A stretch of 64,000 bases of DNA from Chrysochromulina tobinii. Its lineage: Eukaryota. The notes under the pieces were generated by a model. The model made no database searches, was not told where the DNA came from, and worked only from the letters and a program-made list of their open reading frames with translations. Shown here piece after piece: positions 2,880 to 59,240 of this stretch. Where the stretch lies: NCBI GenBank assembly GCA_001275005.1, contig JWZX01003263.1, forward strand, positions 1 to 64,000. The letters run 5' to 3'. The translations under genes and the position numbers were made by a program. The first letter of the stretch is position 1. Each line of letters begins with the position of its first letter.

Positions 2880-5800
2880 TCATTGATAATACACTTGGAT
2901 TTGCGGCTGGGGCTGCATCATCATGGGCTGCATCATCATCGGCTGGTAGGCGGGAATGCCACCATACATGACCGTGGAGGTGAAGCTCGTTGTCGTCGAG
3001 GTCGTGCCGGGGTACGCGCTCGCCACAGGCATGCCATACGGATTGGCGTACGGGTTGACGGTGCCATACGGGTTGACGGTGCCATACGGGTTTGGCGGCT
3101 GCGCCATTGCTAACGGCTGCGCCAACGCAATCGGCTGCGCCATCGCAATCGGCTGCTGGTACGGCGTGAGCGGCGCGGGCTGCGCCATCACAAGGGACGG
3201 CTTCCTATTTAGGGCGGCCGGCTTCAGATTCCACAGTCCCTCGATCTCCTTGAGGCTCACGCGCTTTTCGGCGACCATCGACTCGGTCACGTCGAGCCAC
3301 GACTTGAAGAAGTCCCTCGTCGTGCCCGCCTGCTTTGGGGGCCACTCGGAGTCAAACAGTCGCAATCGGAGGCACTCAGAGGCACTCAGAGGCGCTCAGA
3401 GGCGCTCGGAGGCACTCGTAGGCAAGCTGAGGCACTCTGAGGCCATCAGATGAAATGAAGGGGAATCAAGGGCTGCGTGGGGGGGTGGCCCACCTGCTCA
3501 AACTGGGCATCGTCGACGGTGTTGAACCAGATCATCGTCCAGTCATCCTGTACACCTGCTTCCTTCTTGTACTCCGCGGCGAGCGCGTCAAAGTACCCTC
3601 GCAGCAGGCCGTGCGAGCTCTCCGTGGGCGGGTTGGCGAGGAGCAACCGTTGGTAGTGATCGGCCTTTCGCTCCTTGCCCATTTCATGGTACCTGATGAG
3701 CGCATCCCATGCGTACACGGATGCACAATCAGCTGCGCAATCAGATGAGTACTTGCGGTACTGACTAGCCCACATGCTGACGAGCGAGGCAATCAGCTGC
3801 GCAGTCAGCTTGCGTACTTGCGGTACTTGCTCGTCCACATGCCAACTTTGGCACGGTAGAGAGGCTCGGACGGCTTGTGGTCTCGGCTGACGAGCTCGTC
3901 ATCCTCCGAGATCTCGTTGTCGAGCTCGTTGTGGAACCCACTCGAGAGGGCGATGGCGCCCGCGATGGAGCCCGCGTCCTCGGCCTTGCTCGGAACCTCG
4001 ATCTTCTTCTGCGGCTGGCCGAGTTGGTCCGGCAGGTCGATCCACGCGACCGCCAGCCGCTTGTAATTGCCCTTCAGGGTCGCTGTTAGGACGCGCGCGA
4101 GGGTCTCGTTGTACTTCTTCTCGAAGGCGAGCGCAATAGCTTTCACCTCATCCTTGTCGTGTGCGCCCAGGATGCGGCACACGCGCCTGTCATTGGTTTC
4201 GGAGCCTGAGAGAGCTGCCTTGAGCTGCGCCGCGTACCTGAGCGGGAGTCAGTGGCACTCGGTGAGTCGTCATCATGAGTCGTCATCTGCTGGTCGCACA
4301 GCCAAGGGGGGAGTGTCGGCTGATCACAGCTAAGGGATTAGTGTCAGCTGATCACAGCCCATCAGAGGTTCGTCAATTGTGTCAGCTGATCACAGCCCAT
4401 CAGCTGGTAGAGGGTAGGGGGTTAGGGGGTAGGGGGAAGGGTAGGGGGTAGGGTGGATAGCGTACCACTCGGCCGGCCCTTGGAGAAGTGCGAGGAGAGC
4501 GTCCTTGACGGGGCCCGAGTACTCCTGCGTGAGCGCCCGCTTGAGTGACGTGTTGTATGCCTCCTCATAGTACTTAGCCACCATCGCGTTCTGCGGCGCC
4601 GAGTTGTCGCAGAGGGTCTCGATGTAGTCGATCGCGCCTTCGTGCAGCTGATGGGCCTGGCGACGAGCGAGGGGTTCGTCAATCTTGTCGTCGTCCACGT
4701 CGCGCTTGCCCTTGAGCATCCGCAGCGCCAGCGCCTGCATTCGAGGGATTCAGAGACACCCAGAGGCACTTAGAGGCCATCCGAGGCTATCCGAGGCCAT
4801 CCGAGGCCATCCGAGGCCATCCGAGGCTATCCGAGGCCTTCCCAGACCCTCAATGGCCCATCACGGTGCATGCATCCAATCACGGTGCATGCATCCCATC
4901 ACGGTGCATGCGTCCCCCACGCGCACCTGCATGTCGCCACTCAACTCATCCGCGAGTTTGTCGACGAGTGAGTCATCATGGTACCCTTCCCACTTGGCCT
5001 TGGCAGCGCGCACGCGCCGCGGGTGGCGCGCGCAGAGGAACTCGACGAGAGCCCCATGGTCAACAGACGAGCCCTCCATGGCGAGGTCAAGAATCATCAG
5101 GTCCGCCTGCTCGGCCAGGGCGGCGCTTGGTCAGAGAGGCAATCAGAGGCCATCAGAAGAGGCCATCAGAAGAGGCCATCAAGAGGCAAGTAACGGCGCT
5201 CGCCTGCTCGGCCTGCACCACCAAGAACTTGGCGAGGTACGCATACCAATCGGAGCCGAAGAGTGAGCTCCCGCCGATCTCGTCGTTGATGAGCTCCTGT
5301 AACGGTTTCCCGTAAGCTTCACGGTAGCCGAGGTTGACGCGTGCGAGCGCGCGCTTGTCGCGCGTCGCGAATGCGCGAATGAGGGCGGTGTCGTCCGTGC
5401 CCCACCCTTTGATGGCTTCGTGGATCGTCTCGACGTCCAGGTACGCGACGAAGACCTGATGGAGAAGGCAATCAGAGGCGCTATTAGAGGCCATCAGAGG
5501 TCATCAGAGGTCATGAATGGTCATGGTCGCATACCAGCAAGCTCTCATGCTCAAGGAAGAGGTAATCAGAGGCCATTAATGGTCATTAGAGGTCATCAGA
5601 GGTCATTAATGGTCGCATACCAGCAAGCTCTCATGCTCGAGGAAGAGGTAATCGAGCATGCTCGCCATCGACGGCGCGTCGCCCTTGTGCGTCGTGGCCA
5701 CGTCCACCTCGGTGAATATCTCGGCGCCCGAGCTCGGGTCGTGGAAGCTCCGCAACCAGAAGAGCGCGGCTGAGAGCAGGTTGTTCGTCGTGCTGATCGT

Positions 5801-7787
5801 GCCCGCATCGTACTCGGAACGGGGCGAGAGCGCCGCGCGAAGCGCCGACCAGAGCGGCTGGCTGTACTTGCGCTCGAAGGCCTCGGCGACGCCGACCATC
5901 TTGGGCCCATCGAGCCCGCCGAGCAGGCGTGAGAGGACCTAATGAAGGAGGCCATCCGCGGTCATTAAAGGCCATCAGAGGTCATTCAGGGTCCTCAGGG
6001 GTCATTGGGGGCCGTCAGAGGTCATTCGAGGCTAGCAGGGGTCATGAAGGGTCCTCAGAGGTTATGAGAGGTCTTCAGAGGTCCCATCGCAGCTCCATCG
6101 TAGTCCTCAGAAGTCCTCAGAGGTTATTAGAGGTCATTAGAGGGCCATCAGAGGTAATGAGAGGTCCCATCGCAGCTCTGTCGTACGTCTTTGTTCGTAA
6201 ACCAGCCCTCCATCGCGTCATGCAGCCGCATCGCGATGAAGTCGGCTGTGGGAAGTAAGAGGGCGCTCAGCGCGAAGTAGAGGCGTGAGCCGCACTTGTC
6301 GTTGAGCGCCGCACTGAGCGACTGGTCGAACTTCTTCTCATACAGCGCCGCAACGAGCATCTGATGAGGGACGCAATCAGAGGTCATCGGAGGCGATCAG
6401 AGGCGATCCGAGGCACTCTTCTCAATAGCGTCGTGGCGAGCACATTCTGCGCGCGCGAGTTGGCGCCGATGATCTCGATGATCAGCGACTGGTCGGCTTC
6501 CTCGAAGAAGCCTTTGGCGCACCTGATTGAGGGATGCAAGGACAGGTCATACGAGGCACTCACAGGTCATTAGAGGCCATCACAGGTCATTAGAGAGCCA
6601 TCACAGGTCATCAGAGAGCCATCCAATTTCATTAAGGGCCATCAGAGGTCAATCCCACTCCGTTCGAAGTAGCCCTCGGCGCACTCGTCGTGCAGCTGCT
6701 GCGCTTGCTCAGCCGCGCGGGCCGCGTCGCTCGTGTCACTCTCGTCGCGATCTCCCTTGTACAGTAGATAGATCAGGCGCTTGAGATGCGTGTACCTGAT
6801 GAGAGGGACGTAATCAGACCCAATCAGACGCAATCCGACGCAATCAGCCAACTGATGATGAGGGACGCAATCAGAGTCCATCAGAGAGGCCCTCAGAGGC
6901 CCATCAGATGGCTGATTGCGTCTGATTGCGTCTGATTGGGTCTGATTGCGTCTGATGAGGGATGCAATCAGAGGCCCATCATATGGGCCTCGGCAGCTGC
7001 GTACGTGCCGCTCGGCCACGTGAGCTCCTTGGTCACGTAATCGATCAGTGACCTGTCCGTCCGTCCCTCCCACTTTCGCTTGCCCGCCTGCAGCTCCGAC
7101 TGGGTCTGCGTCACGAAGAGCTCGATGAGGCAAGTTTCGTCGCAGCCGAGGCTCGTGAGGATCGACGCGTCGCACGCGAGATCGATCATGTCGGCCACGT
7201 ACCTGACGAGAGAGGCCATCAGAGAGCGCACTCAGAGCGCGCACGCAGAGGCCCACTCAGAGGCCATCAGAGGCGCAAGCAGCGACGTACTCGTCGGGCG
7301 CCGCCATCCCGAAGAACATCATGCGGCCATAGCCGCCGCTACCCGTCTCGCCCTTGACCTCGGCGCGCATGTCCTTGTCGTACAGCTCCCGGTACTGCCG
7401 GCGCGTGCGCGCCAGCTGGCTCTTGGTCCTCGTGCACAGGCACGCGATCAACTTGCGGTCGTTGCGGCCCAGGCCGAGGAAGCCGCCGTCGGCGGCCTCC
7501 TTGACGGTCTGGGCGTCATAGATGGCCACGTACTCCTTGAGACGCCGGTTGTGCGCCTGCAGCCGCGTGCAGCACTCCGTCATGACCTTCGCGTCGTCGG
7601 CGTGCTCCTCTCTCGCCTTGAGGCACGAGGCAATGAAGGTCTCGTTGCCCGCCTTGGTTTTCACCGACTCGGCCTCGGCGATCGTGAGATTGTCGCGAGC
7701 CACCTCGGCGCGCGTCGAGCCCCGCTCGGCCTCGGTCACACGCGCATCCTTGATCGTCTCCACGGGGGCGCTCGCGCCGCAGCCCAT
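2880..7787 (-). CDS. Multi-exon annexin with 8 annexin repeats, N-terminal MGCGAS acylation motif and Pro/Gln/Tyr-rich C-tail
   Basis: Annexin repeats such as EAIKGWGTDDTALIRAFATR, GLGRNDRKLIACLCTRTKSQL and LGCDETCLIELF. The frame is kept by introns 7203-7290, 6796-7004, 6523-6684, 6361-6443, 5939-6186, 5456-5620, 5107-5203 (GC-AG), 4735-4926, 4238-4465, 3693-3817 and ~3375-3493 (last acceptor uncertain). Confidence 0.85.
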
Positions 7788-11472: not shown

Positions 11473-11571
11473 CCGTCGAGGGGCCGGTATGTTATTCTCC
11501 GATGCACAACTTCAAACTTGAAATAAGCGAGCACCTCTCGCTCACGACGGCTCCTGGCAGGGCGAACATAC

Positions 11572-12342: not shown

Positions 12343-13032
12343 TCAGGCACGACTCATCATCGCCGCTGCTGTGTGCTTCATCCCACCGGAGCCGACTGAC
12401 TTCATGACCTCGGCCTTGCGTCTCTCGGCCTCGCGTTTCCTCTCGTCGAGCCCCATTCTGCGTTTTGCCTGTTGCATCATCTTCCGGCCAACCTTGGCCT
12501 CCGCGGCCGCTGCGGCGCACTCCTCGAGAGTGCTCATCCACTGCGCCTTGACGTCATCGTCCTTGGCCTCGAAGCTCACGATCTGATCGTCCGCAATCAG
12601 CTTGAACTGCTTCGGTATCGGCGCCGGCTTGCTAAAGAACGTGGAGCTCATCACCGGCTTCACCTCACGAATCGCTGACATGGCCATCACGCCGGACACG
12701 CCCGAGGCCGTCCACGTTACCATCGTGCCGTCGGACGAGACCGCAATTTTGACCATCGTGCCGGCCTTGAGAGTTGAGCCGTCGGCCTGCAGCACCATAG
12801 TGGCGCCGGCCTTGAGCTCCTCGAGCTTTGCTTCGCGGGCACGCTCCTTGTCATAATCGTCCTTCATCGCCGTGATCGGCGCGGCGAGCTTTCCGAGCCA
12901 GCCCTTGGCCTTTAAAGCGAGCGATGGAGGGCCCTCCTCGCCATCTCTGTCGCTGGTATCGTCTCGGATCGGCTGCTTGTCTACGCTGCCGGGAATGGGC
13001 ATACACGGGCAAAGGACGGCAAGCGACTGCAT
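12343..13032 (-). CDS. PH-like domain protein with coiled-coil C-terminus
   Basis: MQSLAVLCPC... ORF; IREVKP...FKLIADDQIVSFEAKDDDVKAQWMSTL resembles the PH C-terminal strand and helix with conserved Trp. Confidence 0.7.
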   Translation of the reverse strand: MQSLAVLCPCMPIPGSVDKQPIRDDTSDRDGEEGPPSLALKAKGWLGKLAAPITAMKDDYDKERAREAKLEELKAGATMVLQADGSTLKAGTMVKIAVSSDGTMVTWTASGVSGVMAMSAIREVKPVMSSTFFSKPAPIPKQFKLIADDQIVSFEAKDDDVKAQWMSTLEECAAAAAEAKVGRKMMQQAKRRMGLDERKREAERRKAEVMKSVGSGGMKHTAAAMMSRA

Positions 13033-14027: not shown

Positions 14028-15351
14028 TTAATTGACGGACGAGCCCTGGCGCACCATTCGCGGCTTCTGGAACGTGGGCACCTCGATGTCGAGCTTCTTG
14101 CCCCCGGCGGCCTTCACCTTCTTGCCACTCGCCGCCGCCGGCGGCAACTTAATGACCGCAGCATCGTCCTCCTCCTCCTCATGCTCGGGCAACTCGAGCT
14201 TGCCAATGAAGCGGTAGTAGGGCACCTATGGCAGCAGCCCACCCGACACACACAGCCGTCGGTTGTAAGCGTGGGCGCCATCCGTCGAACGCGGAGGCAC
14301 TCAGCGTCGGGGTCATCAGTGGCAATCAGGGGTGCGTCCTCAGTGGCACTCGTCCTGACCTTCGGGAGCAGCCAGCCGATGTAGGGCACGTCATCAGTGG
14401 CAATCAGGGGTGGGTCCTCTGTGGCACTCGTCCTGACCTTCGGGAGCAGCCAGCCGATGTAGGGCACTTGTGCCAGCCCCTCGACCACCGCAACTTTTTG
14501 GAATTTCTGCGCACAGCACGAGGCGATCGGAGAGCCGGGAGCGGGGTCAGAGGAGCCGGGGCGGCGGCGGGAAGGCGGGCGTCGTCGTGGGCGCCGGGGG
14601 TCAGAGGAGCCGGGACGGCGGCGGGAAGGCGGGCGTCGTCGTGGGCGCCAGGCCAGGCCTTCGGTCACACGCGTCCACTGCGTACCCGCAGCAGATATGG
14701 CACGTGGTCCATATTGAGGCGAACATCGTCCATGAGGAACCAGGTCGGCCAGAAGGTGCGCTGCAACCACGAGTGCTTTGCCATGCCCTCGGCCGGGTGC
14801 TTTCGCGCCACGTAAAAGTCGACAGTGCCGATGAGGCCGCCGGGTGCGAGCAGCGCTGCCGCGTGCTCGATCGCGGCATACCAGTCGGGGATCATCGTGA
14901 GCGAGTACGAGAAGGTGATCAGATTCACCTGCCCGTAGCCCTCCTCGGGCACCCACGTTGTCGCATCGTCCTCGACGATCTGCACGTTGTGCCAGCCGCG
15001 CTCCTCGCACCGCTTGCGCGCGACCTCGAGAAGCGGGCCGCACAGGTCAACAAGGTACACCTTGGCGAACGACATGATGGCCTCGTCGCCCATCATCTCG
15101 AGGTTGGCGCCGGTACCGCCGCCGAGGTCCACCCAGATCCCTCCTTCGCCGTGCGCAGCCTTGGCCTCTGCCATGAGCTCCTCGCGTCCCTGTAGCAGCC
15201 GCTTGCGGAAGGCGTCGTAGTCGCCCGCCTGCGCCTGGTAGAAGGCCTCGAGCCGTTCCTTATGCGACTCGCCCGCGTGCCGGAAGGGCGCCATCGCCAG
15301 GTTGGCCAGAACGCGCACGTCGCTCACGATCGATGAGATAGTCTGCCCCAT
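14028..15351 (-). CDS. SAM-dependent methyltransferase of the betaine lipid pathway (BtaB / BTA1 methyltransferase-domain type), 3 exons
   Basis: [62 protein letters not shown]; introns 14507-14685 and 14226-14437. Confidence 0.8.
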
Positions 15352-17918: not shown

Positions 17919-18123
17919 GCAAGTGTCGTCCTGGAGGAACTTTTAGGAAACCTTCCATGGTCGAGAACATAAGAAGTCAAGTCAAGTCAAGTCAAGAAGA
18001 GGCTGTGGACATCTCTGAAACGGCCGCAAACTCGCAGGTGTTCGGGCGGATCGGGAGCTGACGGCCGATGATGCCGTGCTCGATGATTTCCGGCCGTGGC
18101 CAACCCTACCAGGAGAGGCAGGA

Positions 18124-20130
18124 GATGGCCGAGTACCGTGTCGTCCACCAGCCAACTGTAGCCGTTCGCGACCGGCCGTGGGGCTCGGTCATCGGAGCGA
18201 AGAAGGCGGATGAGCTCGTACCGACGTGCGCACGCTCGGTCGGACTGGCCGAGGGCACATGGGTCAAGACCACCGAGGAGTTTGAGTATAAGGGCGCGCG
18301 GACGCACGGCTGGATGCTCTTGCACGGCCAGGCGATCAACCTGGGCCAGCTGCTCGACAAGGTCGAGAAGGACCGGATGGGCATGGTCGTGCGCTACCAG
18401 GTGATGGTGGCGAAGACGGACATCCGTGAGCGGCCCATGCTCGCGGGCGTGCCCGTCGTGGGCGCGCGCAAGAAAGGTGACATCATCCGTACGGACCAGC
18501 AACTCAACGGCTGGGTACGGCTGCAGCATGATTTCTACGCCGTGGGGAAGGCGGATCCTCTCGAAGGCTGGGCGCAGATAGACGGGCACGCCATCGGCCA
18601 GGGCCTCATCCTACAGCGCTGGGATCCTCCTACGCTGCCTGCTGTAGTCATCGGAGGCCTCGGAGCACAGGGAGGAAAAACGCAACGATATTGGGTGCTC
18701 GCTGCCGAGGGTGTGCCGGTGCGTGAGAGCGCCTCGGAGGGCCACGGAAGGCCACTGATGGCCTCTGATGGCCACTCATCGCCACTGATCGCATCTGATC
18801 GCCACTGGTGGACGCCTCTGATGGCCTCTGACTGCCTCCCTTATCAGGTGCGCGAGCGGCCCTGGGGCCGCGTGCTGTGTGTGAAGAGCCGAGGTCACCT
18901 GCTGCGCCTCGACACTCTGAAGGAGGGCTGGGCACGCCTTGAGGCAGATTTCACCGAGGAGGGTCAGATCGAACATGTGAATGCGGTCGAGGACGACACT
19001 CCAGTGCTTGAGGGATGGGTACGTCGGATGGCCGCTGATGGCACTGATGACCACTGATAACCGTGGATGGCCACTGATGACCACTGATTGCCACGGATGA
19101 CCACTGATTGCCACTGATGACCACAATCTTCCTCTGACGGCTCTCCGATTACCTTCCTCATCAGCCACTGATTGCCTCCTTCATCAGGTTCTGCTCGACG
19201 GGCGCGATCTCGGACTACCTCGCCAGTGCCAAAAGTACGAGCCATCCGAAGATTCCTCGGATTGCGCCGGATGAACCCTTTGATGACGAGATCTCATCTC
19301 GCCTGATTGCCTCCCAAATTAGGTACGAGCGAGAGAAAGTGCCTCCCGCGGAGGAGCCTCGACGGAGCTCCGACGAGATCGCATCTCGCCGCGCGGCCAA
19401 GCACGCCGCGCACGCCGCCAAGGGTAAAGACCTCGGATCGCCTCGGATGACCTCGGATGACCTCTGATGACCTCCGAGTAGCTATGATTACCTCTGATGA
19501 CCTCGGATGACCTAGGATCGCGTGCATGCATGCACGTATGGCCTGCATGAATGGCATCCGTGAATGTGAATGGCATCCGTGAATGTGAATGGCATCCGTC
19601 CGTGAATGGCATCCGTCCGTGAATGTGAATGGCATCCGTCCGCAGGTGAGGACTGCTCTCTGTCGACGTTGCTTCGGGAGGCTCTGGTGTCCGCAGAGGT
19701 CATCGAGCAGTTGGCGCAGGCGGGTGTGAATGACCTCGAGGAGCTCATTACGATCGTCTCGCGCGCCGACCACCACGAGGAGTTGCGCAAGTGTGGCTTC
19801 AGCAAGCTCGGCGCGCGAGCCAAGCTTGTCACTCTTGTCCAGCCGCATTGGAAGGCCCTTGCTTATAAGGAGCAAGGCAACGCACAGTACAGGGCCTCTC
19901 GCTTTGAGGACGCGGCGCAGCTGTACACGCAGGCCCTCCAGCAGATTGCATGCGCCTCGACCGAGCTCGCGCTCAGCTGCTACTCAAACCGCGCCGCATG
20001 CTTCCAGCAGATGCGAGAGCCCCAATTGGCTCTGGCGGATGTGGAGCATGTGCTGCGCTTCGACCCGGGCAACGCTAAGGCGCTCGCGAGGAAGGCGGTG
20101 TACGATCAGCAGCTGGCGGGGGGGCTGTAG
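18124..20130 (+). CDS. SH3b-like repeat + SAM-like + TPR protein, 5 exons
   Basis: Three VR(D/E)RP..G.V.G.....GW repeats; L.K.GFSKLGARAKL; KEQGNAQYR...A...YT.AL and YSNRAAC TPRs; introns 18719-18847, 19019-19187, 19235-19322, 19424-19645. Confidence 0.7.
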
Positions 20131-27563: not shown

Positions 27564-30500
27564 TCGCTACCGCTACCGCTGCAGCTGCCCATGAATGCCA
27601 ACCGCTCGCCACCGCTGAGCCCTTGGAGATCGGCCGCCGGGCGCCACGAGATCGGCGTCCTCGTCTTGGAGATCCCGTGGTGATCGTGGGGGGATCGTGT
27701 GGAGATCTCGTGGCCAGAGGCACCAGGGAGGGCTTGTGCACGTGAGGGCGCCGTGACGGGCGCACTCGTTGGGCGATTGTCAAGCACTGGCTCTGCGGCC
27801 GGGGACTGCGGCGGCGGGGGTGGCTCAGCGTCATAATACGGTGTCTTGGGCTCCTTGATCACAAAGGGGGTGTTCGCGCGCCGGCGGGGTTCCCGGAGTG
27901 TCTCCATGAAGAGAACCTGGCGCCCTCGACCAAAGGTCCCTAGAATGGTTACGAATTGTCGCGGTGAGATCGTAGCGAGATCGTAGCGAGATCACAGGTC
28001 GCGGTGAGATTTGAGCGAGGCTGCAGTGAGATTGCAGCGAGATTGTAGCGAGATCATGAACGCCTTGCATTGGCGTGCTCCATCAGTGAATCCATCAGTG
28101 ACACCATCAGTGGACACCATCAAACGCAATCAAGAGCACAATCATTTGGTCTCATGTCGTCGTCCAGGCATACCTTCACGCAGCGCAAGGTCATGCACAG
28201 CCTTCAGTCGATCGATCTCTCGCTGCAGGCGATCGCCTTCGCGCCCTTTCGCCGCGACGACGCGTCCAATCTGAGCATGCATCGTCTCCTCGAGCTCCAC
28301 CTGATGAGAGGGGCAATCAGAGGTCATCAGAGGCACCTCGAGCTCCACCTGATGAGAGGGGCAATCGGCGTGGATCGTCTCCTCGAGCTCCACCTACCAG
28401 TGTGCACGTAATTGTGCCCGGATTGGTGCCCAATCAGTCGCAATCAGTGTGCCAGTCCGACACACAAGCAGGGTGCGACCAAACAATCAGTTGCCCCCAC
28501 CCACGAACCAGCCGCATTCACAGAGCCGCAACCCTCTCCACAGAGAATCCTCATCACCTCAATGGCATCCCAGCTTGTGTGCATGCAGCTCACTAGCAGC
28601 TCACCTTGTTTGCATGCAGCTGCTCGTGCGCACCCCGCAGCTGCATCAGCTGCCCGTGATAGTCATCGCGCTCATGCGACGCCTGCGCGAGCGCCCGCCG
28701 CAGCGCCTCCACCTCCGTTGCATGCGCACGCTCAGTTCTCGTGAGCTCAATCTCAGCCTGCGAGGTCGTATCTGCCACCTCGGCGCGCCAGAGCCGTTTC
28801 GCGCGGGAATTGTCGTTGAGTGCCTCGCGAAGCTCGGCCTCGAGATTCTTCACGTGCTCCGTCGCCTGTGTTCACGCGTCCGAGGCAGCACTCGCGTGAA
28901 CACAAGGCAGCGCTCGCGCAGCTCACAGGTCGGCCATCCAAATCTCCACCAATCTTCAATCAACGGCCCTGCATCGCCATCAATCTGTGGAGACTTGCAA
29001 GGAGATGCGATGCACAGCACACCTGCCCGAGCTCGCGATCAAGACGCAATCCAGACGCAATCAAGACTTGCAAGGAGATGCACACCTGCCCGAGCTCGCG
29101 CTGCGCCGTCCTGAGCGCCTCTTCGAGCGACTTCTTCTCATCGGCCAGCCGCCGCCGCTCAGCCTCGATCGTGTGCTCAGCACGGCGCGTCTGCGAGTGC
29201 GCGAGAGCACGCAGAGAGGCACATTCAGAGGCACTCAGAGAGGCACTCAGAGACGCAGAGAGGCACATTCAGAGGCACTCAGAGAGGCACACTCAGAGGC
29301 ACTCACGACGTAATCACTCGACGCACCTCAGCGAGCGCGGCAGCCTCAAGCTGCTCGATGGTCCCAGCACTCTCGAGCTCGAGCACCTGATGAGGGAGGT
29401 CATCAGAGGGTCATCAGTGGCAATCAGATGGTCCCGCAGCGCTCTCGAGCTCTCGAGCTCCGGCACCGTGAGCTCATTAAGCAGCGTGCGCTCCGCAATT
29501 GCATGCTCGTGGTCCAGATGGCCTGATGAGGGAGGCATTTAGTGGCCATCGGTTTGTGGTCAGGGGAGCTCCAACCTCCCATGAGGGAGGTCATCGGAGG
29601 TCATCGCAGGTCAGGGGAGCTCCAACCTTCTATGAGGGAGGTCATCGGAGGTCATCGCAGGTCAGGGGAGCTCCAACCTCCCATGAGGGAGGTCATCGGA
29701 GGTCATCGCAGGTCAGGGGAGCTCCAACCTTCTATGAGGGAGGTCATCGGAGGTCATCGCAGGTCAGGGGAGCTCCAACCTCCAATGAGGGAGGTCATCG
29801 GAGGGCCATCAGAGGGCCATCAGAGGGCCATCAGAGGGCCATCAGAGGGCCATCAGAGGGCCATTAGAGGGCCATCAGAGGGCCATTACCGAAGCTTGTG
29901 GCCGCGCGCTCCCATTGCGCCTGTGCCTCGCCCGCATGTACTGCATGCACTGCATTGGCCTCGTGCTCGAGCTGCTCGGCGGTCGAGCGTACCAGCGCGG
30001 CCGCCTTGAGCACGTGCAGCACGATCGCGCGTGCACAGAGCCCAGCGAGTTGCGTAGGCCAGACGGTGCGGCCGAGCTCGGCGGTCGCCTCGTGCTCGGC
30101 ACGGCGCGAGGCCTCGCGGGCCGTGGCTGACTCAGCGAGGGCGCCGTCCAAAGAGGCGCGTAGCTTGGCGATGGAGTCCTGCCGAGGCGCGAAGACGTCA
30201 CTCGCCACCGTCCTCAGGCCCAATGAAGGCGGGGCTCTCATCCTGGGCGGCGAGCGCCGGTATGCTGCCGCCGCCGCCGCCGCTCCCGCTGCGGCCGCCG
30301 CCGCCGCCGCTGCCGAGGACATCTCGTAAATCTCGTTCCCCGGCGGCGCGGACGGTGCCGCAAAGATGGCGTGCGGGTCCGCCTGCATGGCCGCAGCGGC
30401 GGAGACCGCCGCGGACGGCCAGCCCGGTAGCCCGTTCCCGTGCGCATCCTGTAAGGGAGCAGCTTGCGGCTTGTGCGCGCCCGGCATGGCGCCCGGGAAT

Positions 30501-45412: not shown

Positions 45413-48400
45413 TTAGCCTCCGAATGGCGCCCATGGCTCGCACTCGGAGACGCTCGTCTCGCCCTCGCTGCCCACTTGATGCGTGCGCGCGAGCGCGACG
45501 AGCGGGTCGAGCGGCAGGGCGGCGAGCCGCATCGTTCGATCCATCTGCCCAAACGAGAGCAGCACGACGCCGCCATCGGCGCGCGCCGTGTCGGGCTCGA
45601 CGATCAGTCCGACGACGTACTGCAGTGCGCAGCGGGGCGAGGTCGCGATCTCGAGCTCACGCTCGGAGATGCACAGCTTGGGCGAGATCGAGATCACGCG
45701 GAAGGGAGGTGCGCCCGAGATTACGTAGAAGACAGTCGCATACAGTGCGGGCGCATGCGCACCATCCTTGACGTGCATCGCCGCTAGAAAATCCCCATTC
45801 GGAAGTCGCGCGTATGGAGTGCCGCCTCGAAGCCCTTGCCGCTGCGTGTCATACGTGCGAAGGAAGTCGGCGCTCGAGTTGTATGCTCGGTGGCATGAGC
45901 CCCCAGTCCAAGCGCAGCGCAGCACCACATGAGGCTCGATTGAGTAGCTGAGGTGGAGCGCGCCGTCCTGAGCGAGGGATCGAGCGCAGCGGTACTCATC
46001 GGAGGGGCCAGAGAGAGAGGCCCTCGAGAGAGGCCAGAGAGAGAGAGGCCAGAGAGAGATAGAGGCATTCAGACGGTCTCTCAGACAGGCACCCAGGGAG
46101 ACACACTCAGACACACGCAGAGAGGGCCATCCGAAGTCATCAGTGGTCGTGGGCGCACTTGTACAAAGGGCACCCAATTCTTCTCATTGTCCTGTAGTGT
46201 AAACGGACCGTCAGGCCCTTCGTCGATCGACAATTCCCACACAGCCTCCTGATGAGGGAGGCAATCCGATGTCATCAGAGGGCATCAGAGGCACTCAGAG
46301 CCGCGCCACCTCGGGCGCCATGTACCTGCCTCAGTGTGCCACTCGCTGCATCGCCCGCTAGGCGCAGCAAGCACAGCCGACGCCGCCCGCGGCAGTCCTC
46401 GTGGTTGGCGACGAGATAGAGCGTGCCGCGGTGCACGAGCACACGAGCGTCCTCGTAACCGTCGTACTCGATGACGTGGCGGCGCGGCGCGGCCGGCGCT
46501 GGTGCCGGCGGCGCTGGTGTAGGCGGAGGGAAGTCTTCAAAATTGGCCCGAACATTGGCGGCGTCCGCCGCTCGTACGTCGGGGCCGTGCGCGCTGCGGC
46601 TCCGGGTTTGATTGGAGCCTCCGCCAACAGCACGGCCCACACGAACGGCTCCAGAGACGCTGCCGCTGCTTGTGGTGGTGTTGCCGCCGCCTTGCCCATG
46701 GCGGCCACCGCCTTGCTCGTCGCCCCCATCGGCGCTACGGCACCGTTCAAACGCAGCGACGGAGCGGCAGTTGGTGATGGGCATGGCTGCGCCGAGCAGC
46801 AACAGTGCGCGTAGTAACCGCCCACGCGCCAGCCGCCGATGCGCGCGTGTGCGTCGGAGCGCGCAAAGCAGTTGCGCCACTCCCGCCGCGAAGCATCCGA
46901 AGATGAGGGATGAGGACAAGCGAGGTGCACCGGCCGCTAGCCGGCAGATGGCAGGCGAGAGGTCCGACCAGAGGTGCTCTTCACATTCACACGGTGGGAA
47001 GGGCGCACTCAAGTTGAGCCACGAGACGAAACCGAGGCGTATCTCTCCAGTGCGCCGCTGCCGCTCCACCGTAAAGTAGCCTACCGCACTGAAGCCGCCA
47101 CGCACGGCGCCGACGCCGCTCGCGCCGAGCGCCATCGCCTGGTCGTTGATCCACTGTTCGGTGGCGGGGAGGATCAAGGGCGTGCCGTCGGGCGCCTCCT
47201 CTACGTCAAAGATCTGGAGCTCGTCCTCCGAGATCGCGAGCTCGTCCTCTGAGATCTGGAGCTCGTCCTCTGAGATCGTGAGCTCGTCCTCCGAGATCGC
47301 GAGCTTGGCTCTGCGCCTGCTACTGCTGCTGCTCCTACTGCTGCTGTTGCCGCTGCTCCAACTGCTGCTGCTCCTACTGCCGCTGCTCCTATTGCTGCTG
47401 CCGCTGCTATTGCTGCTATTGCTTCTGCTGCTGCTAGTGCTGCTGATACTTCTCGTGCTCCTGCTGCTGGTGGATGCCCCGTTGTCCTCACCTTTGTGGG
47501 CCGCCAATCCCACGGCCTCAATCTCGGCCTCAATCTCGATCTTGGCCTCAATCTCAGCGGAGGCCATCTCAATCAGTGAACGCCAGCGATCCGCCGCCCC
47601 ATGGCCGCGCGCCTTGCTCTGCGCCTGCTCGATCACGGCGGCCAACTCAATCTCGGCCTCAATCTCGGCCTCAATCGACGACAGCGCGGACGTCTCCTCC
47701 TTCGCCTGCTCGTCCTCCATGTCCCCATCAAGAGTTTCGACACCCTCGGCGTCCTCGGTGCCTGCCATATAATGGCCACTTGGCCGGCGCATTGGGATCC
47801 TCATGGCTTCAGCCGCCCCGCCCTTTGCAGCGCCCATCAGCAACGGCCGACTCGGCTGCTCTGATTGCGGTTCCAATTGCTCTGATTGCGGTTCCAATCG
47901 CTCTGATTGCGGCTCCACTTGCTCCCGCTCGCCCGCCAGGATGGAGCCTACTCCGGCGCGTGCAACCGTGCCGCCTTTGGCCCCGCGAAGCAGCTCCCCG
48001 GCCTGCCGAACCTCGGTGACGAAACCCCGCTCCCCTGCTCGACGCTGCGCCGTTGCGGGCGTCTCGAGCTCGGGCACATGCCCCTGCGAGAGGGCGGCGC
48101 GCCACTCGGGCCAGTCGACTGCTCGTTGCCACGCGCCAGCGGTCGTCGTCGTCCAAATCGAGCGCACCTGCATTCAGAAGCCATCAACGGTCATCAGAGG
48201 CCATCAACGGCAATCAAGGCGTCGTCCAGATCGAGCGCACGTTCGAGAAACGGAAGATGACGACGTAGCGTGCGATGTCGTCGTCATCATCGGCGGCGCC
48301 GAAGTCGTCAGCTGCCCAACCAAATGCGGAGCGTGGCGGCAGCGCTGCGATCGCTGGGTTGAAGGCGAAAAAGGGCCGTTGTGGCGCAGCTGTCAGGTGT

Positions 48401-48900
48401 TCGGACAGCGCCTCAGGTGGCAAAGGCTGGGGCAGCTCGATTGTGTGCGGTGGCGGCGGCTCCTTCCCGGTGGAGGCGCTCCCTGCGGCGTTGTGACGGG
48501 TATCAGCGGGCACGAGCGGCACGGTCGGCCGCAGGCTCGAACTCGACGTGACGCAGGCGTGGTAGGAGCCGACGGTGATGTCACACGGCATCTGTTCGCA
48601 CGTGGTTCGATACGACTCGTCGGCCTCCTTTCGACGCTGCGTCGCATACAGCAGCTGCCACACCTTGTAGTGCAGCGCCAGATCGTTGGGCATGCTGCGT
48701 AGCACGCTGCTGTACTCAGAGCGCGAGAGCTCCTCCCTATCTCCAGAGCCAAAGTGCATGGCGGACTCGGCGAGCTCAATCTGACGCAAGATGTCGTGCG
48801 TTGAGGCAGAACGCCTCGGCCGGTACTGGTAATTGGACGGCGGCCCGAGCCACTCGGCCAACGCGCGGCTGGAGCTCGGCGTCGCGAGAGAGCTCGCCAT
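45413..48900 (-). CDS. Membrane-anchored protein with a C-terminal GH130 / beta-mannosyltransferase-like propeller and low-complexity N-terminal half
   Basis: GYEDARV....G.LYL, EKNWVPF, LSYSIEPHVVL, LRGGT, AAMH motifs; introns 48168-48240, 46249-46325, 45968-46158. Confidence 0.55.
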
Positions 48901-48960
48901 ATCACCGATCGGGGAACCGTGTGAACAGGCTGTTAATAAACCCGAAGAAACTAAATCACA

Positions 48961-51900
48961 CTATTTGAGGATCAAATCATCGTCCAGCTGCTCGACCGCT
49001 TCGAGCCAGGTACCCTGCACCTCATCCCACCCGCTGTAAAAGTCGAGTCGGTCTTCAAAGACATCGAGGAAGAGGGAGAGGTCTTCCTTCGACACCGCTA
49101 GGAGCGTCCGAAGCCCGTCGAAGAGGATAAACTGTGCGGTGACGATGATGGCCAGTGAGAGGCAGCGCTGCTTGACGCCAGCGTACAGCACCGAGGCCTT
49201 AGCTGCCACGTCATCGGACTCAGCACCCGCGAGCACATCGTCCAGCGCTGCGCGCCAGTTGCGTCCAAATCCGCGGGCCGCACATCGGGTGACGACGGTA
49301 TCGGCCGGATGGCTGACCAGCGCACCCATGAACCCGGCGACGATCCCGGAGATGAGGGAGACGACGAGTGCGAAGGAGGGCCGTTCACTCGCCGCGGGCA
49401 AGATCGAGAGCAGCGCGTCCTGAGTGCTCGCGTACACGAGGAGTTTCGTCACCTGCATGCAACGAGACTCGCAGTCAAGTCAAGTCAAGTCAAGTCAAGT
49501 CAAGTCACCTGCATGTAACGAGACTCGCAGGCGTTTCAGAGCGGAACTCAACGAGGGGCACTCAGAGGGTGCACTGACTCAGAGGGGTCGCACAGAGGGG
49601 TCGCACAGAGGGGGCGATCTCGGTGCAATCTCAGTTCTCACCCCAAACGGGAGCTCGCGCCCCATGAGCGTGGGTAACCCGTCCCATGGCCGGAGCACAT
49701 CTCGCTGTTTATCTCGCTGTGCCGTGGACGAAACCACGCGCGCCGTCGCGGGCGTCGAGGTGACCACGGCAGCGCTGCTCGCGGCGGCGCGCTGTCGTGA
49801 GCTCTCATCTGGCATCGTGAGTGACAGCTTGGTCGACGTCGTCGCGACGCCTGCGCCTTCCGTGGCTGCTCGGGCAGCAGGAGCGTCACCTCGCATCACG
49901 AGGTCGAGAGCTTCCACAAGGTTCTGTGGCGCGTCGGGCGCGCCACTGCCCGTCATGATCTTCACTCGCGCCGTCTCAAAAGGGGAGGAGCACACGGAGG
50001 CCGCCACGGCCTGCAGCAAGCAAGCTGTGAAGAGGATCGGAGTGGCGAGGTCTGCGGGGGCCGCTGGGCCCATGACGAACGCCGCCAGCTGCGGAATCGT
50101 GCGCCTGAGGAATTCAAACGTCCCAAACGAACCCGCACCTGCCGCGAAGCCCGCAGCAATGGACGCTTCGATGCCCAAAAAGGGCGACGAAGGGGGGGGC
50201 GGTGGTGCAGTCGCGGCAGCGGTGGGCGGGGGCGGGTCCCCGACGCCCGGGACGATGCCCCTAATGTGCTGCTCCGACTGCGCTGTGCTGTTGAGCGATG
50301 GCTGCGTAGGAGTCCCGGCGGGCGCTTTGGCTGTCTTGATCGCTGCCTGGCGACGCGTCTTGATGAGGTCGATGGGCGACGTGACTGCACGGGTCGTGGC
50401 GGAGCAGAGTCCGCCGGCGATGGCCAGTCGAGCGACCAGCGCGGGGCTGAGCGGAACGTCCTGACGAACCCCACCCGAGATGGATGTGGGCAGCGTGGAG
50501 ACCTCCTGCGAGAGGAGACTCTCACTCTTGCGACCGGCCACTTGGTTTCCGACGAGGTTCCCCCTGCACACCGGCAGGCGCGCGCACCGCGTCCGAGGCG
50601 TTGGTGAGGGCACGGGTCCATTGGTCACGGGTCCAATCTCGGTGCAATCTCGGTGCAATCTCGGTACAATCTCGGGCACGGATCCAATGGTAACGGGTCC
50701 AACGGTCAGAAGAACAGGGGAGGGCACCGCGGCGCGCGTAAAGCCCGCAATCTCGGTGCCATCTCGGGGCAATCTCCCGTACAGCCCGAAAGGCAGTCTC
50801 GGCGGCAATCTCGACGGCAATCTCGGCGCAATCTCGCGTACAGCCCGAGAGGAGCTTCGAAGACATAGTCAGGGTTGATCGACTCGTACAGAAGGGATGG
50901 GAAGCGATGGCGAGGCGGTACGCCCACCGGGTACGTTCGGCTAGGCGGCTTGCCAGGGTCGAAGATGGGCGCGCCCTCTTCCGGCGGCAGGAGCGCGAGG
51001 AGCCGGTCGATGACGCCGTCGACGTCACGAGGATTCGAGGGCGGCTTTGGTGGGCGCTGCGGCGGCGAGTCCCTCTCGTCTTCATAACGGTCTTCTCGGT
51101 CACGCAGATCGATGCTACGGGATCGCCACGCCCATGCATCGATGCCCAAATTGGTGCTCGGGACGGCGTTACGAAGCCGGGAGATGCTCTCCTCGTACGA
51201 CGGCGCCAGTCCGTCTGTCGCTGCCCGCTGCCGGCCGAGGGCCAGTGTCGCGCGCGGCGGACGTAGCATGAGGATGTCGGAGGTCGAACGCGCTGAGACC
51301 TGATCGCCGTACCGCGCCGCCATCGACTCGAGCGACCAGGGCGTGGAGGCGAATTCCAGTGGCGAAGGGGTGCGAAAGTTGCTCGATGGCGCCGTGGTGG
51401 GCGCCGTCGCCCTCGCGGCCATCGACTTCCGCACGCGCTCGTCACTACGCTCGCGATTGGAGTCACGCGAGGGGGTGCGCGGGGAGAAGAAGCGAACGTC
51501 GAGATCCTGTGAGGACCCATAGCCGGCGCCAAACCGGCTCAGCGGGACGGACCCTACCTCGTACTCCAAGAGCACCTGATGAGGAGAGCCATCCGAGGGT
51601 CATCAGAGGTGCGCAATCAGCCGCAATCAGGGCTCGTACTCGTCGAGTATGCCGCAATCAGGGCCCTCGGCGCCCGTGACGACGCCTGAGATGCAATCAA
51701 CCACAATCGACTGCAATCAACCGCACTCAGGCGCACCTTGCCCTTGGCGCCCGCGACGACGCCGGTGAGGGCGCGCGGAGGTGGCGCGACCACAACCTGC
51801 ACTCGATCCGTGCCCTTATAGCCTGCGCCCGGGTCCGTCAGCACAAACGCGACGACGGAGCCGTCGCGCACGATAGCTCGTGCCTGGGCGGCGCGCCTGC

Positions 51901-54325: not shown

Positions 54326-57300
54326 ATGTTCCTTTCTATGAAGCGCATCCTCTGTGCGCTCGTCTGTGCGCTCGTGCTCGCGCTGCTGCAGCTCGGACCG
54401 CTGCAGCAGCGTATCTTGCTGGACGCCCGAGCTGCGTCAGATACGCTGCAGCAAGCTAACCTCTGCCGATTAGAGTGCACGGTTGGCGGCGGGGCCGAGC
54501 CGGGATTCCTCGACGAAGGACCTTTGGTCGTGCCGCTGCCGCCTGGCGCGACGCTGCATCTGGCTGGCCGTCCCGGCCGAGGATGCGCCGTGGCGCCCAA
54601 GAGCATGCTGCAGCTGCCCCATGGCATCGGTCGGCTCCCTCGCATCCATTCCGCCTTTGGTGATCTTCGTCTGGTGCCGCATGGAGCACTGCTGCGATCG
54701 CCGCTGCCAACTGCAGATCGCCGCAACGACAGCCGATGCGTCGAGCCGTTTAACGAGCCTTCCGCTCACGAGCATGCATCCATGGCCTCGACACGATGGC
54801 TCGCGTCGCGCTTGCACGCGCGCTGCATGCTCCCGCCAGGTACCTTGTTGGCCGACCTCTCCCCTGATTGCCTCTGATTGCCTCTGATGAACTCTGATGA
54901 ACTCTGATTGCCTCCCACATCAGGTACCTTGTTGGCCGACCTCTCCTCTGATTGCCTCTGATTGCCTCTGATGACCTCTGATGACCTCTGATTGCCTCCC
55001 TCATCTTTCCCTCATCAGGTACCTTGTTGGCCATGTCGTCGGCCGCCGCCGCCGATGGCGCGCCACCGAGCTCAGAGGCCCATCACACGTCGTCGCGTGC
55101 CAGCGCAACGGACGAGGGATCTTGCGTGTCGGCGCCGCTGCGCCAAGCCTGGCTCCGTCCGTCTGCCTCTTTACAGCTTCGCTCTTCACAGCTCCATCCG
55201 TCTCCCTCGGCGCACGCGGGTCGCCAGTGGGTCGCTAGCGGCCACGACCCTCTAGGGATGACACGTACCGCGGCGGCAGCGGATGAGGAGGCAGCGAGCA
55301 ACGCGGCGCTCAATGCATCGCTGGGTGCGGATGTAGGCGGCGCGGCGGCGCTCGAGGTGCCCACGACGGCGCTCGTGGTCTCCGTGCTCCTGCAACTGCC
55401 CACGACGGCGCTGCCAGACGAAACCACCCTCGCCACGCTCCGCCACCTCATCGCCCAGCTGAGTTGGTCCGCGAGCGCCGTCCCGGGCACGAGCGCCGTC
55501 CCGGGCACGAGCGCCGTACCGGGCGCGAGCGCCGTACCGGGCGCGAGCGCTTTACGGGCGCACCTCGAGGCAAGCGCTGGGCAGCCTAGCGCTGGGCAGC
55601 CTAGCGGCCTTGCTGCACGACCAAAAGGCGCGCGTGCCGCCGACGTGGCAGCTGCTGCTGCTCAGCGCCCGCCCGCTCTGTTCCGAACCTCCAGAGCTCG
55701 TCGATCTCCTCCGGCAGCTGCCCGACGGTGGTGCACTTGGCACCGGCGCGGGAGCGGGAGCCGAGCGCCGTACCGGGCGCGAGCGCCGTCACGGTCGCGA
55801 CTGGCGACCTGGACGAGAGCGCCGTCTCGGGCGCGGATCAGAGCGTCGTCTCGGGCGCGAGCGAGGCGGCGGGCAAGCGCGCGCCGGTGCTGCTAGGCGC
55901 TCGGCCAATGCCGGCGCAGGACACGATGGCGCCCGTCACGGCGCCCCTTGAGGCTCCCCCCACGCCGCTGAGTGCGGAGGTGCGGCGCGTTTGGGACCTC
56001 TCCCCTGATTGCCTCTGATTGCCTCTGATGACCTCTGATTGCCTCCCTCATCAGGTGCGGCGCGTTTGGGACCTGCTGGCTCCTGCAACAGCGACACGCG
56101 TGCTCGCGGACTCGAGATCGCATCTGGCCGCTGGGGCACTGGCCGCGCGACTCTCGCTCCTTCACAAGAGCCCTCAGTGCGACGTGCTGTTCACACCGGC
56201 GGGCGCCACGGTCGCTGTGGACGGCGTCATGGCTGCTGGTGAGTTGCATGCAAGTGCTCACCACGGCGTCATGGCTGCTGGTGGCGGTGGTGCACGCGTC
56301 GGCGGCGCTGGTGGCGCCAAAGGCTCTGGCGAAACGCCCAAGGCGGTGCCCGACGCCACCGCCGCCACCAGCACTGCCTCCGCCGCCGCCGCCGCCACCG
56401 CCGCCGTGACTGGGGAGTCTATCGGTGGCAATCTCGGTGGCAATCTCGGTGGCAATCTCGATGGCAATCTCGGTGGCAATCCCGGGGATGATGCCTCGTT
56501 GTCATCCAGTGCAGCGTCCTCCACCTCCTTTGATCCCACCTCCTCCTCCTCCTCCTCCTCCACCGCCGCCGCCGCAACGGAGATCGCCGCCGAGATGGCC
56601 GCCGAGATGGCCACGTACAGATCCGCCGTCGAGCCACTTCGCGCGTGGCACTTCTTCGCGCTCGCGCCAAATATGGCAACCGACCACTCGACAGCCTACA
56701 GCCACGCCCCGCCGGCGCCGGCGGCCGCGGCGACGATGCCCCTCCCGTGGCTTCAACGAGCTGCGGTCGAGTCCGCCAGCGTGCCGCGTGGTGCCTGGCC
56801 CGTGTGGCGACCGTTGAGGCTGCCTGCCGCATGCCGCTCAGCCGGAGGGCCCTCGGCGGAAGCGCTCGGTACGGCGCTCGAGGCGGCGGCGGCCTTGGAC
56901 GTCCAGCACGGCGCTTCCACAGATGCCGAGGGTGCGCCCAGCACGGCGCACAGAGCGTGGCAAGCGGACTACGCGGCCGCGGCGGTCGAGTTGGACTACT
57001 GGCTACGCTGCTTGCATGCGGGCGCCTCCATCTGCCATGTTGTGCCGGCCATCGACCCAAATATGGAGGGCGAGAGCGATGAGCATGCAAGTGCTCACCA
57101 CGGCGCGGCGCTCGGCCCAAATATGGAGGGCGAGAGCGATGAGCATGCACATGAGTATGCACCGGCCGCGCTGCACGGCGCGGCGCTCGGCGAGCTGCTG
57201 GCCCGGCATCGCCGCCCGTCGGCACTTCGCATCTTGGTGGTCAACGAGCAGGTGCCTTTGCATGCATGTTGATTAGCTTCGCATCTTGATGGTCAACGAG

Positions 57301-59240
57301 CAGGTGCCTTTGCATGCATGTTGATTAGCTTCGCATCTTGATGGTCAACGAGCAGAGGTGCCCGGGGCCGCGGAGGGAGGTCATCAAGCTGCATGCAAGT
57401 GCTCACCACGGCGCCCCTCACCCCCTTCATCAGGTGCCCGGGGTCACGGAGGGAGGCGATCTGCGGGCCGCGCAGCTCGTCAGCGAGATCGCGGCCGAGG
57501 GGCACGCGGTCACGTACGTGTCCCTGACGCCGGCGCGTCGGCCGGAGGATATCTCGGCGTTGCGAGATGCGGGCTGGCGCGCGTTCGCGCCCTCGTGTGC
57601 GGACTCTCGCGCCGCGTGGTGCGACGAGTGCGGCCAGGTGCAGAGTCGCCCGTTTGTGAGTTGCATGCAGGTGCTCACCACGGCGTCCCACCCCCCTCAT
57701 CAGGTGCAGAGTCGCCAGTTTGTGAGTTGCCGCGTGCAGTCAGCCTCGCGGCTGGCGCACCGCGTGGCCGTGATCGATGACGACGCTCATCTGGACGCTC
57801 TGAGCAGCGCTCGGCACGACGCTCTGGGCAGCGCTTCCAGTGCGGTGGCAGCCGAGGCAGACGTGGTGCTTCTCATCGCATGGTTCTGGCGCTGCGGCGC
57901 TCACCACGGCGCGGCGGAGCTGGCGATGCAGCGGCTGAGTCAGCAGCCGCTGGTGCGGCATTCGCGCGTCGTCGTCGTGAGCGACGACGTTCACTGGGTG
58001 CGTGACGCGTCCGCCCCTTTCTGTAACGACTCTGCGGCCATCCGGGTGCGCGAGCTCTGATGACCTCTGATGACCTCTGATGACCTCTGATGACCTCTGA
58101 TTGCATGCCTCATCAGGTGCGCGAGCTCGCTCTCTACTCGAGCCTCTGATGGCCTCTGATGACCTCTGATGACCTCTGATTGCATGCCTCATCAGGTGCG
58201 CGAGCTCGCTCTCTACTCGAGCGCCGCTCTCACCCTGACTATCACCGATGAGGACCGCGCAAAGCTGAGCGGCCAGCGGCCCGGACTCCCTCTCCGCACA
58301 CTCCCGTTTGCGGCGACGACACCAACGGCAACCGCGCTCGCCGCTGGCTGGGCACAACGGCGCGGCGTCCTCTTTGTCGGATCGTACCACCGGAGTGGCA
58401 ACACGCGCGCACTCCGGTGGTTGCTGCGCCGCGTGTGGCCAAAGGTTCGTCAGGCGGTCCCGTCGGCGAGATTGCATCTCGTCGGCGCTCACGAGTGGCG
58501 CACGGAGGTGTGCGAGCTCTGATGACCTCTGATGATCCCTGATGACCTCTGATGACCTCGGATGGCCTCTGATGGCCTCTGATGAGTATCTGATGAGGAC
58601 CGCGCGGAGGTGCGCGAGCTCACTGATGGCCATTGATGGCCACTGACTACCTCTGATTGAAATCAATTGCCACCGAGGACCATTGATGGCCTCTGATGAC
58701 CGCTGGTTGGCTCGGATGACCATTGATCGGCTTGGATGACCATTGATTGGCTTGGATGACCGCTGTGATTGGCTTGGATGACCGCTGGTTGGCTTGGATG
58801 ACTGATGGGCTTGGATGACCGTTGATTCGCTCTGAGTGCAGGTGCGCGAGTCACGTGCCGAGGGCGTCGAGTCGCTCGGTCAAGTGGAGGATTTGAGTCC
58901 AGCGATGCTCGAGGCTCGTGTGCTCGCGGCACCGGTGCTTGTGCATTCAGGCCTCGCGACCGAATGCATGCTAGCCTTGGGCCATGCGGTGCCGCTCGTG
59001 ACGACGCCGGTGGGCGCTCGCGGGCTACTGACGGCACGCTCGCCCAGCGCGATCGCGATCGCGCGCACAAGCGACGAGTTTGCGGCGGCGCTAGTCTCGC
59101 TGCTGCTTGACCGAAGCGCGTGGGACGCGCAGCGCGCGCGCAGCGTTCACCATGCGGCTGCATATCTCGGCGCGCCCAGGCTGCATCGGCAGCTTCGCCG
59201 CGCCCTCAGCGAGATGCGAGGCGAGTTGGGCTTGGAGTGA
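54326..59240 (+). CDS. Large multi-exon GT4 (GT-B fold) glycosyltransferase-like protein; apparent frameshifts near 55600-55760
   Basis: N-terminal TM; RILVVNEQ|VP....GGDLR; VLFVGSY...N..AL.WL...VWP.VR; GQVEDL, AAPV...SG, VPLVTTPVGARGL; introns 54840-55018, 55980-56054, 57252-57433, 57638-57703, 58046-58195, 58508-58841. Confidence 0.7.

Follow-up and report, generated by a model that had tools for sequence, protein, structure and literature searches.

The window analyzed in this study is the whole 64,000-nucleotide (nt) stretch at positions 1 to 64,000 of contig JWZX01003263.1 (assembly GCA_001275005.1) from the freshwater alga Chrysochromulina tobinii. A protein encoded by a single exon of the window groups at 90% with C. 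tobinii KOO22662.1 and a C. parva model, which places the genome in the C. tobinii/parva group. A gene near its right end (54338..59240, forward strand) encodes a membrane-anchored glycosyltransferase with a GT1-type C-terminal domain, as indicated by PF13692 matches, and is interrupted at six intron sites. A multi-domain annexin gene on the reverse strand (2880..7787) has 11 introns with boundary duplications of 2 to 21 nt. Introns of both genes, and of others in the window, carry a footprint in which a copy of flanking exon sequence, typically the start of the next exon, is followed by a filler. This footprint marks about a third of the introns in the window, well above chance. A preliminary description made from the letters alone had drawn attention to it as a candidate system of intron birth, and every interval named there was borne out, with exon-start copies of 20 nt (exact) at 55980, 27 nt (26 matching) at 57638, 14 nt at 54840 and 12 nt at 58046.

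When five introns were removed from the glycosyltransferase gene, a single open frame extended from 55605 to the stop at 59240, and the ortholog P0151 (56% on one exon) aligned seamlessly at the five intron sites from 55980 on. Keeping the intron at 55980, 57252, 58046 or 58508, or half of a stacked intron, broke the frame. The gene also contains a frame break at 55600-55780 (near 55620-55770), where contigs of runs X1, X4 and X15 lack one base at 55623. Omitting this base alone did not restore the frame, and the open reading frame (ORF) test was therefore run in two halves, in both of which the spliced gene is open. The break is probably due to assembly errors in a repeat-rich stretch.

The intron at 55980..56054 (forward strand, like all features of this gene) opens with the exact 20-nt copy, or 22 nt with a shared AG, and continues with filler; its retention gives a stop. 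Its junctions show 5-nt microhomology at the 5' side and AGGT at the 3' side. The introns at 54840..55018 and 58046..58195 had been described as single units, but each consists of two stacked units (54840-54923 and 54924-55018, 84+95 nt; 58046-58116 and 58117-58195, 71+79 nt). In the former, both units comprise an exon-start copy, a filler of 10-nt repeats (10-mers) and CATCAG; the frame opens only with both units out, and all 15 listed ORFs of the cluster, the window's own included, enter the intron. One 35-nt string of several units, headed by non-repeat sequence, is common to the fillers of 54840 and 55980, which points to the copying of an existing array. The sixth site holds an older compound intron (58508..58841) with a 9-nt exon-start copy, present in a lineage without the 58046 intron. 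It is a candidate local template, and the first 28 nt of the 58046 intron equal its start at 27 positions.

The filler had been characterized as a variable simple 10-nt repeat. A 10-mer core was found in 21 of the 34 introns annotated in the window, but the fillers at 57358-57433 and 57638-57703 have no 10-nt repeat and belong to a second, non-repetitive family (family 2), with sites at 56242, 57090, 57381 and 57665 and copies near-identical over 24-39 nt. The compound intron at 57252..57433 contains copies of the upstream exon end and then the unit 57358-57433, a 23-nt exon-start copy with family-2 filler. The peptide encoded by the window's intron copy, VPGAAEGG, occurs in the relatives P0153, P0156, P0159 and P0160 at the place where the window's exon encodes VPGVTEGG. 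The 66-nt intron at 57638..57703, a 27-nt exon-start copy with family-2 filler, is in frame and without a stop, and its splicing is not forced by the ORF; its peptide repeat is perfect in P0150-type relatives and its 22 residues are missing from P0151. Family-2 filler also lies in exons. At 56221..56283, an in-frame 42-nt insertion that is not an intron stays in the ORF and consists of a 21-nt duplication around 21 nt of family-2 filler, bounded by local matches at both ends. A second in-frame insertion, of 60 nt (57056..57149), has a 34-nt duplication around family-2 filler and 7-nt junction microhomology.

Exon positions 57897-57911 match 13 nt of family-2 filler, and the outgroup protein is one residue shorter there; this may be a small conversion tract. 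An IMG/VR contig also closes with family-2 filler, an acceptor and then a donor-like motif (L006:4492-4554), and this end is probably host-derived or chimeric. A protein search for further loci with this filler gave five matches, all of them to this locus, and motif scans gave 0, 0, 1 and 0 matches in viral contigs and 0 and 0 in prokaryote genomes.

We compared intron ends with flanking exons, as the preliminary description had proposed, for 34 introns in seven genes of the window. For 17 of them (annexin and glycosyltransferase genes) the structure is backed by homolog alignments or ORF tests, and for the other 17 by reading frame alone. Boundary duplications of the flanking exon scoring at least 8 were present in 12 of 34 introns (8-30 nt), compared with 0.9 expected by chance, given that 2.7% of 1122 mismatched intron/exon pairs reach this score. 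The observed mean was reached by none of 20,000 derangements. Among the 27 introns that had not been named beforehand, six still passed, and in the annexin gene 3 of 11 did. The claim that the duplication is long and variable also held, lengths running from 8 to 45 nt over all events. TCATCAG forms the 3' end of 14 introns, so that neither this end nor the 10-mer core is universal. The donor often derives from the GT of the duplicated exon, as proposed; the exon starts with GT in 23 of 34 introns, and upstream AG is present in only 14. In run X1, the 56054 acceptor recurs in at least 194 contigs of other loci, whose match to the window ends 2-5 bases into the exon, which indicates that many family members across the genome also precede GT. 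Some duplications cover the upstream exon end or cross the junction (5203-5107, 3493-3330), and upstream AG lies outside many of them (48240, 19235, 6684). The longest string common to fillers is 9-35 nt. Fillers share the 3' end and not the 5' end, and their repeat units are heterogeneous (10-13 nt, many variants).

The same layout had been reported for other genes, and it was found at each place named: a 21-nt exon-start copy (20/21) with no shared upstream bases at 48168..48240 (reverse strand), a decayed 9-nt copy (8/9) at 18719..18847 (forward), where ORFs of relatives read into the intron, and an 8-nt copy at 19235..19322 (forward). Two further cases on the reverse strand, with boundaries from the ORF only, are an older intron to which two units have been added, one with a 20-nt and the other with a 13-nt exon-start copy (28301..28604) and an intron with a decayed copy of at least 17 nt (29387..29466). 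The second units at 28348 and, in the glycosyltransferase gene, at 58117 are plain tandem duplications across the acceptor. In the annexin gene, for which one metagenome scan for orthologs yielded five loci, an 86-nt insertion at a donor site (5553..5638, reverse strand) combines a 45-nt duplication with a 41-nt repeat filler that does not end in AG. It is polymorphic between strains: the locus L004, whose exons are 99.4% identical, lacks it in DNA, and the change may have been a gain or a loss. Besides this insertion, the window and L004 differ by 6-7 intronic indels and one exonic indel. Another annexin intron insert, with 14-nt direct-repeat flanks, contains a 41-nt inverted copy (two mismatches) of the 3' part of the same intron (6911..6951, forward strand). 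The donor at 3493 (reverse strand) is GT in the window and GC in two related strains (L003 and L004), whose 11-nt duplication is perfect.

We considered whether the duplications could be assembly artefacts. Contigs of runs X1 and X4, which may be the source strain, cover 57397-58079 and 47647-49500, and thus cross two of the introns (57638-57703 and 48168-48240), with no differences. ORFs of other strains read into the same duplications, and L003 and L004 carry the annexin ones. An artefact is therefore ruled out.

Splicing had been assumed in the preliminary description. At four annexin introns, exactly 97, 192, 228 and 164 nt are missing from L002, a sequence that has the look of a transcript from the same strain; a fifth intron is still in it. 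The four are spliced spliceosomal introns with GT/GC-AG ends. All 11 annexin junctions were seamless in an alignment with 18 homologs, two of them partial. For the glycosyltransferase gene, the ORF and the ortholog P0151 suggest that the introns are spliced. In introns with three or more 10-mers, the 10-nt period contains TGA and would place a stop in all three frames; retained introns might accordingly be expected to trigger decay.

Presence and absence in relatives, another comparison that had been called for, was followed at site 58046 among 25 listed members of two clusters (73 members, 50 of them read). Because ORF calls run into introns and end there, they report genomic structure, and an ORF ending at the four duplicated residues was taken as meeting the stop of the 58046 intron. 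At the level of predicted proteins, six ORFs were empty, 18 were filled and one was uninformative. The six empty ORFs lie on contigs of 1265-8846 nt, still read into the introns at 57638 and 58508, and are 93-94% identical to the window in that exon. They share haplotype markers absent from the 11 filled sequences compared, which makes partial splicing an unlikely source of the empty state. One filled member, P0174, has a single 51-nt unit where the window has two, so empty, single and double alleles appear to be segregating. The site is also empty in the outgroup ortholog P0151/P0176, one 1087-amino-acid ORF found on contigs of 5.3 and 9.5 kb. The simplest history read from these sequences would be a single gain on the branch leading to the window; alternatively, the intron may have been gained and then lost exactly through its 12-nt repeats.

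Old introns shared with distant taxa, which would later have been invaded by repeats, were not indicated. Nine annexin homologs on contigs of 6.7-425 kb, from three clades of a quick tree and including a C. tobinii/parva paralog cluster, are uninterrupted at the protein level through all 11 intron positions; P0004, on a contig of 4.1 kb, is the closest homolog and may itself represent a transcript. It is likely that the introns are lineage-specific and still appearing, and that new ones are still being made.

The junctions bear on how the duplications and fillers were joined. In 14 testable cases among 19 hand-picked events, microhomology at the duplication/filler junction summed to 41 nt compared with 13.0 expected, a value reached in none of 20,000 draws; outside the glycosyltransferase gene it was 13 compared with 5.9 nt (p=0.010). 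This supports the repair of staggered breaks, which had been proposed earlier, as the likeliest frame. Family-2 filler was entered and left at differing internal points (56242, 57090, 57381, 57665). Nine of the 19 events are not of the exon-start type, and in seven of these the filler does not end at AG. Duplication-plus-filler events also yielded in-frame, intronic, donor-site and inverted inserts, and the process is thus not specific to introns. Inverted templated inserts such as the annexin one occur in repair by end joining that polymerase theta mediates (TMEJ) or microhomology-mediated break-induced replication (MMBIR).

We lean towards the view that the introns arise by microhomology-guided repair synthesis, which copies the 3' halves of existing introns into staggered breaks, with splicing filtering the survivors. 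A staggered break or a pair of nicks in a gene would start the process. Repair synthesis, perhaps by a Pol theta-like or MMBIR-type polymerase, would switch template through microhomology onto the 3' half of an existing intron, presumably in DNA, copy filler, and rejoin the original strand upstream, leaving the copied filler between two copies of 8-45 nt of target. With the filler would come several CTGAY units in a row, resembling branch points, as well as a pyrimidine tract and often CAG; CTGAY matches the branch-point consensus. Where the duplicated target starts with GT or GC, or holds AG|GY, the insert could be excised and the mRNA left unchanged. Selection would keep excisable inserts and in-frame exonic ones, while inside introns any form might survive; exonic cases would then begin with GT and end with CAG as a result of passing this selection. 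The next intron could be copied from each new one, and stacking or exact loss would be possible through the flanking repeat.

Several observations weigh against this repair model. Seven of the 14 testable junctions have only 0-1 nt of microhomology, and local templating is weak, with within-gene filler similarity at p=0.021 and the nearest match in the same gene for 10 of 34 introns compared with 5.7 expected (p=0.068). The 10-mer core occurs 68 times in sense and never in antisense orientation within introns, and a few nested fillers end at an unused acceptor-like AG (3762, 19164, 51683, 57277); both would fit an RNA template equally well. No significant duplication was found in 22 of 34 introns (1-14 nt), eight of the 11 annexin introns among them, and these weak duplications may reflect decay or a different origin. 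The analysis covers one 64-kb window, in which introns were annotated and events picked by hand, and at least three introns lie outside the set (near 14467, 52200 and 50700). The polymerase gene search was confined to the same window. The empty sites and intronless homologs are known as predicted proteins, not as DNA, and no RNA junction of the glycosyltransferase gene was visible in a joint table dominated by contigs of other repeat loci.

Excised intron RNA or pre-mRNA might instead be reverse-transcribed at a nick by a non-long-terminal-repeat (non-LTR) or Penelope reverse transcriptase (RT) acting in trans, or by an RT-capable repair polymerase. Copying would run from the 3' AG of the RNA with 5' truncation, and a second nick 8-30 nt away would produce the variable duplication. 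Insertion of non-LTR elements and short interspersed nuclear elements (SINEs) by target-primed reverse transcription gives a variable target-site duplication (TSD), a fixed 3' end and a truncated 5' end. The geometry here corresponds, with a variable TSD from the first nick and microhomology at the 5' side, and the TCATCAG ends, the strand bias and the nested fillers ending at an AG other than the used acceptor are in keeping with it. However, this combination fits the 10 exon-start events among the 19 and not seven of the other nine, which have no AG end. An antisense copy 3' of the acceptor end and in-frame inserts with local matches on both sides (56221) are also difficult to reconcile with an RNA template, and we found no poly(A), promoter-like head or RT partner. 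Among the 319 window ORFs, 130 were scanned and contained no candidate RT of the kind suggested in the preliminary description, a result with little bearing on the genome as a whole. Non-LTR-derived introners do exist, at about 5% of classified families in the portion of PMC12130899 available to us. We regard an RNA template as rather unlikely, though deserving of serious weight. The same earlier suggestion of telomerase-like addition, in which 10-nt units would be added de novo at a break from a short RNA template, is scarcely credible: filler arrays do vary in copy number, and the last bases of several duplications are in register with the repeat (55980, 58046), but the units are heterogeneous, the 35-nt string with its non-repeat head is an ordered array common to two introns, repeat-free fillers come with the same anatomy (57358, 57638), and non-intron inserts share it.

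A transposase could have spread ordinary non-autonomous Introner elements of one or two kinds, each having defined ends (family 2, for instance, as a complete GTGAGT...CATCAG unit), with slippage and unequal exchange later blurring lengths and TSDs. The near-identity of family-2 copies and a 7-bp CTGATGA/TCATCAG stem in three of six folded introns would suit this, and donor-from-TSD layouts are described in the accessible text on Symbiodinium and Polarella (10.1101/2022.06.06.494994, 10.1101/2020.10.14.339549). With regard to terminal inverted repeats (TIRs), however, the stem is internal, and folding energies are no better than those of shuffles (z -1.23 to +1.15), giving no support to a hairpin element; the 5' ends of fillers are not shared. 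The published DNA-type introners in these sources have fixed TSDs of 3-8 nt, compared with 8-45 nt here, and a screen lists 0 families for C. tobinii in the accessible part of PMC12130899. We consider such an element improbable. Remodelling of old introns in place seems very improbable: tandem duplication across the acceptor, or partial cDNA conversion, would write the exon start into the intron, repeats would expand later, and empty alleles would be exact losses. The second units at 58117 and 28348 show that such duplication occurs, repeat-number indels are frequent between strains, as seen in the comparison with L004, and a published model has introns lost exactly by way of microhomology at the splice sites (PMC3020277, in the text available). 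It nevertheless does not account for first units where the outgroup and homologs of three clades have an empty position, and for site 58046 one gain is more parsimonious than a gain and a loss.

Microhomology-guided repair thus places the window introns close to intron gain by break repair, which they resemble in mode, with a filler that would feed the process. As far as the accessible text of PMC3443670 and PMC3020277 goes, both involve new polymorphic introns, direct repeats overlapping splice sites and filler captured at a staggered break. The published repeats are short and the filler is exogenous or mostly untraceable, with five unambiguous traceable cases in a table of PMC3443670, whereas the duplications of the window are up to 45 nt long and their filler can be assigned to a recognizable family of intron 3' halves, so that the process would feed on itself. 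Tandem duplication of AG|GT, treated in the available part of PMC3443670, likewise recruits splice sites from a duplicated exon and fits 5203-5107 and 3493-3330 in part, as well as the stacked second units; there the intron is duplicated exon only, whereas here it is mostly foreign filler, often without upstream AG (48240, 19235, 6684).

The donor-co-opting introners of Symbiodinium, Polarella (classes 4/5 and 6/8/10) and Emiliania huxleyi (fam24) are similar in that the insert brings its own acceptor and takes its donor from the duplicated target, leaving the mRNA as it was. In the accessible accounts (10.1101/2022.06.06.494994, 10.1101/2020.10.14.339549), however, their TSDs are fixed at lengths of 3-8 nt, their copies are near-identical over the full length, and TIRs are common. 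The window introns lack two defining features of DNA-type Introners, a fixed short TSD and end-to-end near-identical copies. The nearest haptophyte case is E. huxleyi fam24, given in the available portion of PMC12130899 as 'co-opt 5', carry 3'' with '10bp terminal direct repeats', five copies and an unknown mechanism; an introner of a Tara Chrysochromulina sp. has a 4-bp TSD and carries the 5' site, according to the accessible part of 10.1101/2022.06.06.494994. Staggered breaks repaired by end joining leave microhomology-associated tandem duplications with in-cis templated inserts (PMC5730883, in the text available), and the window shares the variable duplications, the junction microhomology and, putatively, such inserts, represented by one inverted copy and two local matches, with a weak within-gene excess. 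TMEJ and MMBIR are known as mutation signatures, not as a source of intron families, and their enzymes would be candidates here. Our literature search found no description of this anatomy in Chrysochromulina, subscription journals being largely outside its reach. An abundance of 10-11-bp tandem repeats in the introns of E. huxleyi was reportedly noted by Read and colleagues in 2013.

Where most new spliceosomal introns come from is still an open question, with transposons favoured in recent surveys. With slightly less than even confidence, we propose a transposase-free intron replicator in Chrysochromulina, in which intron 3' halves would be copied by repair synthesis from DNA or intron RNA, the donor would come from a long target duplication and each copy would template the next. 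This replicator would be the main source of the introns of this genome and would operate today; recombination between flanking repeats could undo its insertions, and introner screens based on near-identity would not see it. If so, similarity-based screens miss a class of intron gain. C. tobinii is a culturable alga with a 59-Mb genome, according to the accessible part of PMC4580454. Traceable fillers and segregating alleles in a screen-negative alga make repair-only propagation, and the choice between DNA and RNA templates, directly testable. Given the long footprints as well, population genomes or mutation-accumulation lines could test repair-driven propagation.

Other repeats and genes in the window were noted in passing. 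An intron outside the 34-intron set (14228-14467, reverse strand) has a 9-nt next-exon copy at its start and a 47-nt duplication around repeat filler, and one at 29558-29804 (reverse strand) contains five tandem 51-nt units, all of which close with a pyrimidine tract like that of an acceptor but lack the final CAG. A convergent pair of paralogous genes (11570-12260, forward; 12346-13030, reverse) is about 71% identical, forms a 1.2-kb inverted self-match and has no Pfam match. A degenerate repeat region of another kind lies at 40800-41560, with no Pfam match in the few nearby ORFs scanned. Finally, (AAGTC)n tracts occur at 7882-7903, 17974-17996 and 49473-49504, two of them intergenic and one intronic, and the tract at 49473-49504 attracts many contigs from other loci.

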